Shown one piece after another: positions 26,871-36,046 of a stretch of DNA of 64,000 nucleotides. This DNA comes from Candidatus Latescibacterota bacterium (GTDB lineage: Bacteria; Latescibacterota; UBA2968; SICM01): assembly GCA_965217865.1 (NCBI GenBank), contig CBDCJO010000002.1, positions 96,001 through 160,000 of the forward strand, in the 5' to 3' direction. Both the position numbers and the translations under genes were made by a program. The first letter of the stretch is position 1, and each line of letters begins with the position of its first letter. A model generated the notes under the pieces. The model saw only the letters and a list, made by a program, of their open reading frames with translations. It had not been told where the DNA came from and ran no database searches.

Positions 26871-28484
26871 ATGGCACGAGGAAGACCGAAAAATCAGCAA
26901 TCCGATCCCAATGCGAAGCCGGGCATCCATGGCGCCACGACCGGCTGTGAGGCCCAGCTTTGGCAGATGGCCGACGCCCTGCGCGGCAGCATGGACGCGG
27001 CCGAATACAAGCATGTCGTCCTCGGCCTCCTCTTTCTGAAATACATCTCCGATGCCTTCGAGGAAGCGCACGCCCGCCTCGAAGGGGAGCGGGAGCAGGG
27101 CGCCGATCCGGAGGATCCGGACGAGTACCGCGCCGGGAACATCTTCTGGGTGCCGTCCGAGGCCCGCTGGACACATCTCAAGGCGCACGCGAAACAACCC
27201 ACGATCGGCCAGCGGGTGGACGAGGCCATGGCCGGGATCGAGCGCGACAACCCGGCGCTCAAGGACGTGCTGCCCAGGGACTATGGACGACCGGCGTTGG
27301 ACAAACAGCGGCTCGGCCAGCTCGTCGATCTGATCAGCAACATCAAGGTGGGCGATGAGGACGCCCGGTCCAGGGACGTGCTCGGCCGCGTCTACGAGTA
27401 TTTTCTGTCGCAGTTTGCCAGCGCCGAGGGCAAGAAGGGCGGCGAGTTCTACACCCCGCGCTGCGTGGTCAAGCTGTTGGTCGAGATGCTGGAGCCCTAT
27501 CGGGGCCGGGTCTACGATCCCTGTTGCGGTTCGTCCGGCATGTTCGTGCAATCGGTCGAGTTCATCCGCGCGCACGCCACGGGCAACGGTAATGGCAGAA
27601 AAGCGCCCAAGGGCGCCAAGACCGACATCTCGATCTACGGTCAGGAATCGAACTACACGACTTGGCGGCTCGCGAAGGTGAACCTCGCCATTCGCGGCAT
27701 CGAGGGGCAGATCGCCCACGGCGACAGCTTCCACAACGACCGCCATCCCGACCTCAAGGCCGACTTCATCCTCGCCAATCCGCCCTTCAACGTCTCCGAC
27801 TGGGGCGGCGAACGGCTCACCGACGACAAGCGTTGGCGATACGGCGTCCCGCCCAAGGGCAATGCCAACTTCGCCTGGGTGCAGCATATCGTCCACCATC
27901 TGGCGCCCACCGGTGCCGCCGGCTTCGTGCTCGCCAACGGCTCGATGTCCTCGAACCAGTCGGGCGAGGGCGCAATCCGCAAGAGTCTGATCGAGGCGGA
28001 CCTTGTCGACTGCATGGTGGCGCTGCCGGGCCAGCTCTTCTACTCGACCCAGATCCCAGCCTGCCTGTGGTTCCTCTCCCGTGATCGCAAAGGCGGCAAG
28101 CCTCGCGACCGTCGCGGCGAGGTGCTCTTCATCGACGCCCGCAAGCTGGGGCGCATGGTGGACCGCACCCACCGGGAGCTGACGGACGAGGACATCGCCC
28201 GCATCGCCGATACCTATCATGCTTGGCGCGCCGGGGAAGATGCGGGCGAGTACGCCGACGTGCCCGGTTTCTGCAAGGCCGCAGCACCGGAGGAGGTGCG
28301 TAAGCACGGCCATGTGTTGACCCCCGGTCGCTATGTTGGCACGGAAGCTCAGAGGGACGATGGTGAGCCGTTCGAGGACAAGATGACACGGCTTGTCGCT
28401 CAGTTGAGGGAGCAGCAGGCCGAAGGCGTGAAACTGGATGCCGCTATCGCTGCTAACCTGAAAGGTCTTGGATATTGGACCTGA
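26871..28484 (+). CDS. hsdM: Type I RM methyltransferase subunit
   Basis: [32 protein letters not shown]. Confidence 0.95.
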
Positions 28485-28559
28485 GAAAACAAGCAGTATC
28501 CACCTTAGGATCAACAACCGTATGTGGTGTAGCAAAATGATTGCTGAGGGTCACTACCT

Positions 28560-32908: not shown

Positions 32909-35900
32909 ATGAACGGCTTGTGTGAATCCACCGTTGAAGACGCCGCCCTTGCTTGGCTGGAGAGAGTCGGCTGGCAGGTCGCGCATGGTCCCGACATCGC
33001 CCCGGATACGCCGGGCGCTGAGCGCTCCGACTATGGGCAAGTAATTCTGGTGCAACGTGTGCGTGATGCACTCGCACGGCTCAACCCCGACCTTCCCGCC
33101 GACGCGCTGGACGACGCCTTCCGTAGGCTAACTCGCCCGGAAGGTTCGACGCTGGAGGCCTGCAACCGCGCCTTTCACAGGATGCTGGTAGAAGGCGTGA
33201 CGGTGGAGTACCGGACCGACGACGGAGCGATACGCGGCGCACAGGCCCGCGTGATCGATTTCGACGATCCTGCCAACAACGACTGGCTTGCGGTCAACCA
33301 GTTCACCGTGGTCGAGAACAAGCACGAGCGCCGCCCGGACGTGGTGCTGTTCGTCAACGGCCTGCCGCTAGGCGTAATCGAGCTCAAGAACCCGGCGGAT
33401 GAGGACGCGACGACCTGGTCCGCTTGGCGGCAGCTCCAGACCTACAAGGCGGAAATTCCCTCGCTGTTCGCCTTCAACGCGGCGCTCGTCGTGTCGGACG
33501 GGCTGGAAGCGCGGATCGGCACGCTTACCGCTGGGCGGGAATGGTTCAAGCCCTGGCGCACGATATCGGGCGAGGCGCTGGCCGATCCGCAGATGCCGCA
33601 ATTGCAGGTGATGCTCGAAGGCGTCTGCGCTCCGGAACGCTTTCCATCGCTGGTTCGCGACTTCATCGTCTTCGAGGATGACGGCGGCCGGACGTTGGTC
33701 AAGAAGATGGCGGGGTATCATCAATTCCACGCCGTTGGCACGGCCGTTGCCGAAACGTTGCGGGCAACCGAGTTGCAACGGGCCACCGGCTTAGGCAAGG
33801 AACCAGGAAGCAACAAGTCGGGCCGTAGGCCGGGCGGCGATCGGGGTGACCGGCGCATCGGCGTGGTCTGGCATACCCAGGGTTCGGGAAAGAGCCTGAC
33901 CATGGCCTTCTATGCCGGGCGAATCATTCGCGAACCGGCGATGGAAAACCCCACTATCGTCGTGTTGACCGACCGAAACGATCTTGACGATCAGCTCTTC
34001 GGTATTTTCGCCCGTTGCCAGGATCTGCTACGGCAACCTCCGGTTCAGGCCGAGAACCGGGCCGACCTGCGCGCCAGGCTTGCGGTCGCATCAGGCGGCG
34101 TGGTGTTTACCACCATCCAGAAGTTCTTCCCCGAAGAGAAGGGAGACCGGCATCCCATCTTATCCGACCGGCGCAACATCGTGGTCATCGCCGACGAGGC
34201 GCACCGCAGTCAGTATGACTTCATTGACGGCTTCGCCCGCCACATGCGCGATGCGCTTCCCAACGCTTCGTTCATCGGTTTCACCGGCACGCCGATAGAG
34301 CTGGAGGATGCCAACACGCGCGCGGTGTTCGGCGATTACATCAGCATCTATGACATCCAGCGCGCGGTCGAGGATGGCGCGACCGTGCCGATCTACTACG
34401 AGAGTCGGCTTGCTCGACTGGTACTGGACGAAAGCGAGAAGCCGAAGATCGATCCCGACTTCGAGGAGGCAACCGAAGGCGAGGAGATCGAACGCAAGGA
34501 GAAACTCAAGACGAAATGGGCACAGCTTGAAGCGATCGTCGGCTCCAGGCACCGCCTTGCGCTGGTCGCCCGGGACATCGTTTCGCATTTCGAGCGGCGC
34601 ATCGAGGCCATGGACGGAAAGGCGATGGTCGTCTGCATGAGCCGGCGCATCTGCATCGACCTCTACCGCGAGTTGGCTCGTTTTCGCCTGAATTGGCATC
34701 ACGAGGACGACGACAAGGGACGAATCAAGGTCGTGATGACCGGTGCCGCCTCCGACCCGCCCGACTGGCAGCCCCATATCCGCAACAAGCCACGCCGCGA
34801 GGCGTTGGCAAACCGGTTCCGCGACGCCGGTGATCCGCTTCAGATCGTGCTCGTACGCGACATGTGGCTGACCGGCTTCGATGCGCCGAGCCTGCATACC
34901 ATGTATGTCGACAAGCCGATGCGTGGCCACGGGCTGATGCAGGCGATCGCGCGGGTGAACCGCGTCTTCCGGGACAAGCCGGGCGGCTTGGTCGTGGATT
35001 ACCTCGGGCTGGCGCATGAGCTCAAACGAGCGCTTGCGACCTACACCGAGAGCGGCGGCACGGGGAAGACCGCACTCGATCAGGCGGAAGCGGTGGCGGT
35101 GATGTCGGAGAAATACGAGATTTGTCGTGGATTGTTCCACGGCTTCGACTATTATCGGTGGATCGACGGGACACCGGCGAGACGTGTCAGCCTGCTGCCG
35201 GCGGCGCAGGAACACATTCTGTCGCAGGAGAACGGCAAGGATCGCTGCCTGCAGGCCGTGCGTGAACTCTCCCAAGCTTTCGCACTTGCTGTACCGCACG
35301 AGGAGGCGCTTCGCATCCGCGACGATGTGGCGTTCTTTCAGGCCGTCCGGTCCGTGCTGGCGAAGAGAGCTGAGGGGGAGATACGTCCTGAGGAAGAACT
35401 AGACTATGCCGTTCGCCAGATCGTCTCAAGGGCGGTTGCACCGGAAGGGGTTATCGACATCTTCGCCGATGCTGGCCTGGAGAAGCCCGATATTTCGATC
35501 CTGTCTGAGGAGTTCCTGGCCGAGGTGCGGGGCATGAAACAGCGCAACCTTGCGGTCGAGTTGTTGCAGAAGCTGTTGAAGGGAGAATTAGCCGTTCGTG
35601 GGCGAAAGAACGTCGTTCAGGCGCGATCCTTCGCCGAGATGCTGGAGCAGACCATCCACCGTTACCAGAACCGCGCCGTTGAGGCCGCGCAAGTCATCGA
35701 GGAATTAATCCAACTCGCCCGCGATATGCGCGAAGCGAACGCGCGCGGCGAGAAGCTCGGGCTGTCGGACGATGAGCTCGCCTTCTACGACGCGCTTGAG
35801 ACCAACGACAGCGCCGTGCAGGTACTCGGAGACGAGACCCTGCGCGAGATTGCTCGCGAATTGGTCGAGACTGTGCGGAACAACGTCACGATCGACTGGA

Positions 35901-36046
35901 CAGTGCGCGAGAACGTTCGTGCCAACCTCCGCCGGTTGGTCAAGCGCATTCTGCGCAAGTACGGATACCCGCCCGACAAACAGGAAAAGGCGACGCAGAC
36001 GGTGCTTGAACAAGCGGCGGTGCTCTCTCTCGGCTGGGCGACTTGA
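32909..36046 (+). CDS. hsdR: Type I RM restriction subunit
   Basis: [56 protein letters not shown]. Confidence 0.95.

Follow-up and report, generated by a model that had tools for sequence, protein, structure and literature searches.

The locus described here raises the question of what an antitoxin-type domain is doing on the specificity subunit of a type I restriction-modification (RM) enzyme, next to the gene of a candidate toxin, and whether its activity depends on the state of that enzyme. The operon occupies positions 26871-36046 of the window, i.e., the 64-kb stretch of contig CBDCJO010000002.1 of Candidatus Latescibacterota bacterium that was analysed in this study. It consists of six co-directional uninterrupted open reading frames (ORFs): hsdM, cargo ORF 1, a HEPN gene, an MNT domain fused in frame to hsdS (MNT::hsdS), a cargo ORF with HNH_5, and hsdR. 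An earlier reading of the letters alone (the sequence-only reading) had proposed that antitoxin activity is tied to the RM complex, so that loss or inhibition of HsdS would free the toxin. Based on the results of this study, the fusion is real and recurrent, and we lean towards an embedded type VII toxin-antitoxin (TA) pair in a tolerated, co-expressing fusion that is likely blind to the state of the restriction enzyme. The features of the operon are as follows (aa, amino acids; TRD, target recognition domain).

26871..28484, + strand: hsdM, 537-aa methyltransferase subunit of type I (PF02384 and PF12161; PADLOC PDLC03019, E 4e-223)
28560..29576, + strand: cargo ORF 1, 338 aa, likely HNH-like (Atlas feature matches)
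29578..30000, + strand: HEPN toxin candidate of the HI0074/PF08780 type, 140 aa, R101-X4-H106-X-Y108 (PF08780, E 5e-17; 1jog, E 1e-10)
29993..30298, + strand: MNT antitoxin-type domain, HI0073-like, fusion aa 1-102 (PF01909; 1no5, E 2e-12; Foldseek)
30299..30355, + strand: acidic linker of low model confidence, fusion aa 103-121 (model; composition; contigs across the junction)
30356..31642, + strand: HsdS body, two TRDs plus two conserved helical regions, fusion aa 122-549 (PF01420 twice; PADLOC; model; Foldseek)
31602/31626..32870, + strand: cargo ORF 2, N-terminal HNH_5, start GTG 31602 or ATG 31626 (PF14279, E 3e-13)
32909..36046, + strand: hsdR, type I restriction subunit with HindI-like C-terminus, 1045 aa (PF04313, PF18766, PF11867; TIGR00348 above cut-off)

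The junction between MNT and HsdS was found again in assembled contigs; confirmation in reads had been suggested by the sequence-only reading. A 611-bp contig (30229-30839) crossing it showed 0 differences and 0 gaps in runs from two studies (2/4 runs compared, one of the two positive runs possibly being the source sample of the window). These contigs, together with the architecture of the homologues and the Atlas clusters, rule out a lost stop codon as an artefact. When residues 1-130 of the fusion were searched against proteins of 301-961 aa, 1261 homologues were found and the best 120 were examined; Methylase_S was present on 115 of these 120, the protein of the window being counted, and the remaining five read as cut-off or frameshifted HsdS. 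A search for short forms found 2603 proteins of <300 aa. Among the best 150 representatives at 50% identity, 79 are at least 300 aa long and 76 of the 79 carry HsdS, and six Atlas clusters combine Methylase_S with NTP_transf_2. The proposed search for nucleotidyltransferase plus Methylase_S architectures returned a recurrent arrangement, often with a HEPN gene upstream.

In the 168 genomes of the host phylum, 53 hsdM loci of the subfamily were present, with an MNT within 10 kb downstream in 32 of them. The MNT lies in a frame of at least 450 aa in 28/53 operons, with a PF08780 match in 21 of the 28, and all of the 20 inspected among 28 other long-frame MNT matches of the phylum were MNT::HsdS. 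A sample of 401 genomes of Pseudomonadota gave an MNT match in 85, and 16 of 20 regions, picked for longer frames, were MNT::HsdS, mostly with another MNT type. Both the joined and the separate state occur in cultured bacteria: plasmid pZMOB01 of Zymomonas mobilis ATCC 10988 has the order hsdM-HEPN-MNT::hsdS-hsdR, and Acetobacter plasmids have the same order in complete operons but with a separate MNT gene. Such split forms, with the genes overlapping or adjacent, were found on the Acetobacter plasmids and at locus L005. Searches for phage or viral copies of the fusion found none, and fusions of this MNT clade were likewise not found in proteins of >961 aa, which is weak evidence. The hsdSp deletion of Zymomonas ZM4 (available text of PMC8432527) was considered as a natural test and is not informative, because the annotation of pZM32 has no HEPN or MNT and a 420-codon hsdS.

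By gene content and motifs the operon is an apparently intact type I RM system. It has hsdM, a two-TRD hsdS and hsdR; the catalytic motifs (NPPF in hsdM; PD..ELK, GSGKS and DEAH in hsdR) are intact and both of these genes are uninterrupted. The description of the approximately 9-kb operon as undisrupted thus applies to all six ORFs. Within the 549-aa fusion (29993-31642), aa 1-102 score 22.6 bits against PF01909 (cut-off 21) and contain the motif G32-S33-X10-D44-X-D46. HI0073 (1no5) is the closest sequence among solved structures, and Foldseek returned 1no5 and 8xeo with TM 0.73-0.74 by target length; the MNT domain is single-copy in the host genome. The remainder matches PF01420 over two stretches, is called Specificity_I by PADLOC and has S subunits as its top Foldseek matches. 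The sequence-only reading was therefore right in seeing an MNT of about 100 aa, with GS-X10-DXD, ahead of a complete two-TRD HsdS; a seeming third TRD came from a partial hidden Markov model and was dropped. The linker that it called acidic is acidic in this copy, but its length varies from 0 to 53 aa among homologues with no conserved sequence and a net negative charge in 66/88. The AlphaFold model of the fusion has pLDDT <50 at aa 95-119 and pTM 0.45, and predicts no confident packing between MNT and HsdS.

In this copy, the 14 codons before HsdS Trp122 contain no in-frame ATG, GTG or TTG, and HsdS is probably made in no other form than the fusion. A conserved internal HsdS start is not supported: a start codon lies within 8 codons in 23/76 homologues vs 40% of control windows, and one with a Shine-Dalgarno sequence in 17/76 vs 10.5%.

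The HEPN gene (29578-30000) overlaps the fusion at ATGACTGA and has RNDTAHDY at aa 101-108 of 140, so that the intact HEPN overlapping the 549-aa ORF was read correctly at the level of ORF positions, overlap and motif. It scores 62.6 bits against PF08780 (cut-off 31.8) and is the only PF08780 match in the host genome; the score against TIGR01987, 46.1, is below the cut-off of 55.8. HI0074 (1jog) is its closest sequence among solved structures, and no PADLOC model matches it. Class I HepT/MntA pairs are defined, in the available text of PMC7641770, as PF08780/PF01909 pairs with RX4HXY and GS-X10-DXD. Here a PF08780 HEPN with RX4HXY stands beside a PF01909 MNT with GS-X10-DXD; by this motif definition the two are a class I HepT/MntA-type pair, and motifs and gene order agree with the earlier claim that a type I RM operon harbours such a pair. 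Since the scores against the NCBIfam equivalogs NF047751 (HepT, 21.7 bits) and NF047752 (MntA, 20.6 bits) are far below the cut-offs of 60, the pair represents another subfamily of the same class by motif.

The distribution of the two genes was followed in 80 HEPN-anchored metagenome loci, many of them on short contigs, and in 80 MNT-anchored loci, each sample favouring loci in which the anchoring gene is whole. In 79/80 HEPN-anchored loci the neighbouring gene is an MNT with GS-X10-DXD intact, and the 80th stops at a contig edge. A separate count started from 84 fused loci, of which 4 cut by contig ends were left out; in the remaining 80, the HEPN has RX4HXY in 52, is degenerate or broken in 19 and is absent in 9. 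These loci are not independent, as L138, L140 and L141 are one lineage and L066 and L218 look like one contig. In the host phylum, 10/20 fused loci have lost or broken the HEPN while keeping the MNT. The asymmetry expected of a TA pair, i.e., no toxin without antitoxin but antitoxin without toxin, was thus seen in these anchor-biased samples. Medians of simple pairwise ratios of nonsynonymous to synonymous substitution rates (dN/dS) were 0.17-0.32 for the two genes, consistent with purifying selection. Where the HEPN is intact, the MNT median was 0.24 whether the locus is fused or unfused, and the HEPN median was 0.32 in fused vs 0.17 in unfused loci, the two sets differing in origin. Several full-length HEPNs without RX4HXY stand beside intact MNTs (L018, L028, L030, L040, L045, L051, L060, L064, L068, L072 and L077), with dN/dS of 0.17-0.34 in close pairs.

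The proposed dependence of antitoxin activity on RM state is not supported so far. The MNT-anchored loci comprised 44 fused, 15 RM-linked but unfused, and 21 without RM genes; the corresponding numbers for the HEPN-anchored loci were 4, 11 and 65. In the MNT tree the label "fused" needs 23 changes, vs a mean of 32.9 after shuffling, and three changes are forced by strong branches; fused, split and free MNTs thus appear to intermingle within one clade. HsdS-derived tails were found on 34 of the 64 short relatives with tails of at least 12 aa. As these are fusions cut within HsdS, loss of HsdS spares the MNT. RX4HXY is intact in 27/45 fused vs 27/40 unfused cases (p 0.5), and the 28/80 fused loci with a dead or absent toxin are a further count against the dependence, as is the undocked MNT of the predicted model.

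We turn to how the preferred reading, the embedded TA pair, might work. The MNT would likely keep the HEPN RNase silent through adenylylation of Tyr108, in the manner of a free MntA. Coupled MNT and hsdS genes probably became one frame when the stop codon between them was lost, and the fusion may be tolerated because the linker is flexible. The pair would stabilise the operon in TA style and act as a backup toxin should the operon cease to be expressed. Tethering would ensure that antitoxin and HsdS are made together. It does not lock hsdS, since the MNT stays whole when a nonsense or frameshift mutation hits the HsdS part. On the other hand, several results weigh against this reading. The MNT tree is a quick version of 98 rows and few columns and is weakly resolved, and some of the cut-off HsdS tails may stem from misassembly or from the end of a contig. 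Fusion is seen in several distant MNT groups and the partner is nearly always HsdS (the 76/79 above); in 16 of the best 120 homologues a further, incoming MNT has likewise become fused, as MNT::MNT::HsdS. Fusions that are HsdS-specific, repeated and sometimes double could mean that tethering was selected. Disruption of hsdM was found in 4/52 loci with a live HEPN vs 7/28 without (p 0.04). The MNT catalytic residues are unchanged in 25/25 loci whose HEPN lacks RX4HXY, a retention that is biased because the loci were found through the MNT. Moreover, in the nearest tested relative, a HEPN of Legionella, the available text of PMC11586414 assigns catalysis to a Q44/E47 Mg site and not to RX4H. Legionella Q44 aligns with Lys41 here, at an alignment E-value of only 0.02, and the toxicity of the HEPN therefore stays a candidate property. 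Glu42 adjoins Lys41; among 84 aligned HEPNs, Lys is at the Q44 position in 79 and E44 is kept in 82, while R78, Y97 and F43 are invariant in this alignment, for which RX4HXY was the entry criterion.

It is rather unlikely that the antitoxin is wired to RM integrity in any form, whether by HEPN being adenylylated only while M2S is assembled or in a variant where the RM complex, or whatever inhibits it, is itself a direct substrate of the MNT; if it were, the fusions of unrelated MNTs, the double fusions and the TRD-less remnants would mark selection for the tether. As a guard, the antitoxin would depend for its stability or access on assembled M2S, and loss of HsdM or a phage anti-restriction protein would free the HEPN and cause abortive infection, which we regard as distinctly unlikely. 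HsdS is unstable without HsdM. The specific and repeated fusion across MNT groups, the double fusions, the long-frame MNT in 28/53 operons of the HsdM subfamily in the host phylum, the rarer disruption of hsdM where the HEPN is live, the two MNT::HsdS genes without both TRDs but with helical regions kept, and the lack of an internal HsdS start in this copy would all fit a guard. Precedents are PrrC and the general proposal, in the available text of PMC3710099 and PMC3506569, that HEPN genes are linked to RM and that the HEPN is released, or acts as a backup, upon RM failure or neutralisation. However, the model has no confident MNT-HsdS contact, the linker is unconserved, the toxin is kept no better in fused loci, the MNT survives HsdS truncation and split forms persist in complete operons. 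A covalent AMP mark, in addition, would need either removal or fresh synthesis fast enough to outrun it. The trend in hsdM is equally explained by general decay, because hsdR trends the same way (disrupted in 3/22 loci with a live HEPN vs 7/19 without, p 0.14), and an hsdM-specific lock by a live HEPN is not established given this parallel.

Alternatively, the pair could be a relic passenger, with a weak or non-toxic HEPN, a neutral fusion and an MNT that serves partly as a homology arm for TRD1 swaps between strains. The frequent death or absence of the HEPN, its higher dN/dS in fused loci (in sets of different origin), the Lys in 79/84 sequences and the conservation of the MNT and the central helical region around a variable TRD1 agree with such a relic, which is nevertheless unlikely in view of the catalytically intact MNT beside 79/80 HEPNs, the invariant or nearly invariant HEPN residues in an alignment selected for RX4HXY, and the purifying selection on both genes. 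Persistence of the MNT without a working HEPN could also indicate a new substrate: the tethered MNT, with the HEPN as substrate-binding partner, would nucleotidylate a target at the RM complex (DNA ends, one of the Hsd subunits or a phage inhibitor bound to it), instead of or besides the HEPN. This is very unlikely. It accords with DXD being kept in 9/9 HEPN-less and 25/25 motif-dead loci, with the full-length, constrained motif-dead HEPNs, with the single MNT fusions to HsdM and to HsdR, and with the substrate-binding idea for HEPN, which appears before this study in the available text of PMC3710099. However, the loci were ascertained via the MNT motif, and otherwise near-invariant MNT positions are changed in 2/9 HEPN-less loci vs 1/150 beside an intact HEPN. 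The pairwise dN/dS also covers the time before HEPN loss, and high GC can lower its estimates; the lack of clade fusions in the longest proteins is a further, weak, point. We thus retain the embedded TA pair in a tolerated fusion.

The related loci show a number of further arrangements. A second HEPN-MNT pair is nested between the first HEPN and its MNT at L002, L003, L014, L065, L217 and L220, and in L065 (4633-7593) both HEPN genes remain. Tandem arrays of the form HEPN-MNT(free)-HEPN'-MNT'::HsdS occur at L015, L017, L019, L032 and L107. MNT-HEPN fusions about 261 aa long also recur (L007; P0163, P0186, P0191, P0192 and P0209). At L197 (6064-6879) and L215 (6003-6827) the MNT is fused to an HsdS without in-frame TRDs but with the helical regions kept; hsdM is intact upstream and no hsdR was seen at either locus. 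These two could be decay, an assembly artefact or a pure tether. Single cases have an MNT in frame with HsdM (L197, 3575-5692) and with an EcoR124-type HsdR (L212, 6048-9344), the latter preceded by a short HEPN-like remnant. Remnants of the HsdM C-terminus were found as MNT tails or just 5' of the HEPN (P0150, P0173, P0131; L002, L003, L026, L055, L067, L229), which suggests cassette insertion at the 3' end of hsdM. Long in-frame insertions within the HsdS part are present at L002, L006, L012, L015, L023, L065 and L229, that of L002 being DUF559.

The core genes of the operon were correctly described before, but the two cargo ORFs (28560-29576 and 31602/31626-32870) had been left out. Cargo ORF 1 has no Pfam, NCBIfam or PADLOC match; its Atlas feature matches score 0.96 against clusters in which 14-53% of the members bear HNH_5, with the recognition score below threshold. 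Neither cargo ORF has a match in any related locus examined, the two have no significant similarity to each other, and both genes are lower in GC. From their sequences they are candidate defence nucleases, predicted to be HNH-like, and cargo ORF 1 is variable and outside the conserved operon core. Two possible duplications were rejected. At the 3' end of cargo ORF 1, a supposed duplicate of the end of hsdM has LDAAI in common, but its DNA score was matched by 114/500 shuffles, and that of an hsdS-end duplicate by 294/500.

Signals for promoters and terminators at the operon were no better than chance. The claim that the surrounding region is decayed was partly checked, and the window does contain many transposases and fragments. 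Elsewhere in the host genome, fragments of close kin of hsdM (88-96% identity) and hsdR (72-89%) are present (C2:236529-236825, C1:305474-306079, C2:3325624-3327067 and C2:1039884-1040589). Downstream of the operon, a DUF2924 gene and a large serine recombinase (38035-39983) suggest an integrative element. The window also contains a Cas3-like HD-helicase ORF of 533 aa only (42649-44250), a DEDDh exonuclease with a weak TerB match (41161-42030), a DUF4145 HEPN (50987-51532) and an RNase H-SF1 helicase fusion (10320-13724), which are putatively further defence-island genes.

Even if the fusion is merely tolerated, roughly every second operon of a widespread type I RM subfamily in the host phylum has an antitoxin-type enzyme on its specificity subunit, masked by annotation of the protein as "restriction endonuclease subunit S". 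In such strains, removing hsdS as a whole, which is routine for better transformation, could be toxic because the antitoxin goes with it. A guard, if true, would be a second and mechanistically new answer to the PrrC problem, namely covalent-modification control wired to RM integrity. As the fused and the split form are natural in harmless cultured bacteria (Zymomonas pZMOB01 and the Acetobacter plasmids, respectively), the question of such a guard is directly testable. No description of an MNT-HsdS fusion was found in the literature covered, in which subscription journals and survey supplements are largely not included and a passing mention is possible; there was no mention in the available text of PMC2701414, PMC4621449, PMC13000451, PMC12839542, PMC8432527 and 10.1101/2024.10.26.620412. 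Within this coverage the fusion lacks a prior functional description, as had been said before; it is uncharacterised rather than unseen, since the architecture is visible in Pfam annotation.

Among known systems, HI0074/HI0073 of Haemophilus influenzae (1jog, 1no5; PF08780, TIGR01987) are the best solved matches and share RX4HXY and GS-X10-DXD. However, the solved HI0073 chain is a free protein of 114 residues, whereas the MNT here is fused to HsdS within an RM operon. PrrC of EcoprrI is a HEPN anticodon nuclease kept latent by a type Ic RM enzyme, and the likeness to it consists in a HEPN nuclease gene within a type I RM operon. The N-terminal ABC-ATPase domain that is a hallmark of PrrC and RloC has no match on the stand-alone 140-aa HEPN, which, unlike PrrC, has its own enzymatic antitoxin-type partner. 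PrrC is almost exclusively RM-embedded (available text of 10.1101/2024.01.29.577857), whereas no RM gene was present at 65/80 HEPN-anchored and 21/80 MNT-anchored loci. The operon therefore does not belong with PrrC, and the parallel drawn by the sequence-only reading holds as an analogy only. The same neighbouring motif pair is found in the class I type VII TA systems of Shewanella oneidensis (SO_3166/SO_3165, PMC7641770) and Legionella (PMC11586414), as far as the available texts go. The toxin gene is upstream here, whereas the MNT is usually 5' in HEPN-MNT pairs (available text of PMC3710099), and in FhepTA, the fused HepT/MntA type of PMC13000451 (available text), the MNT is joined to the HEPN and not, as here, to HsdS. 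Cargo embedded in type I RM operons has been documented by Payne et al. (2024; 10.1101/2024.01.29.577857), in whose main text, as available, no MNT or nucleotidyltransferase is mentioned. The present operon resembles such embedded defence cargo in its co-directional genes nested between the hsd genes, and differs from it in that the product of one cargo gene is now covalently built into a core subunit.

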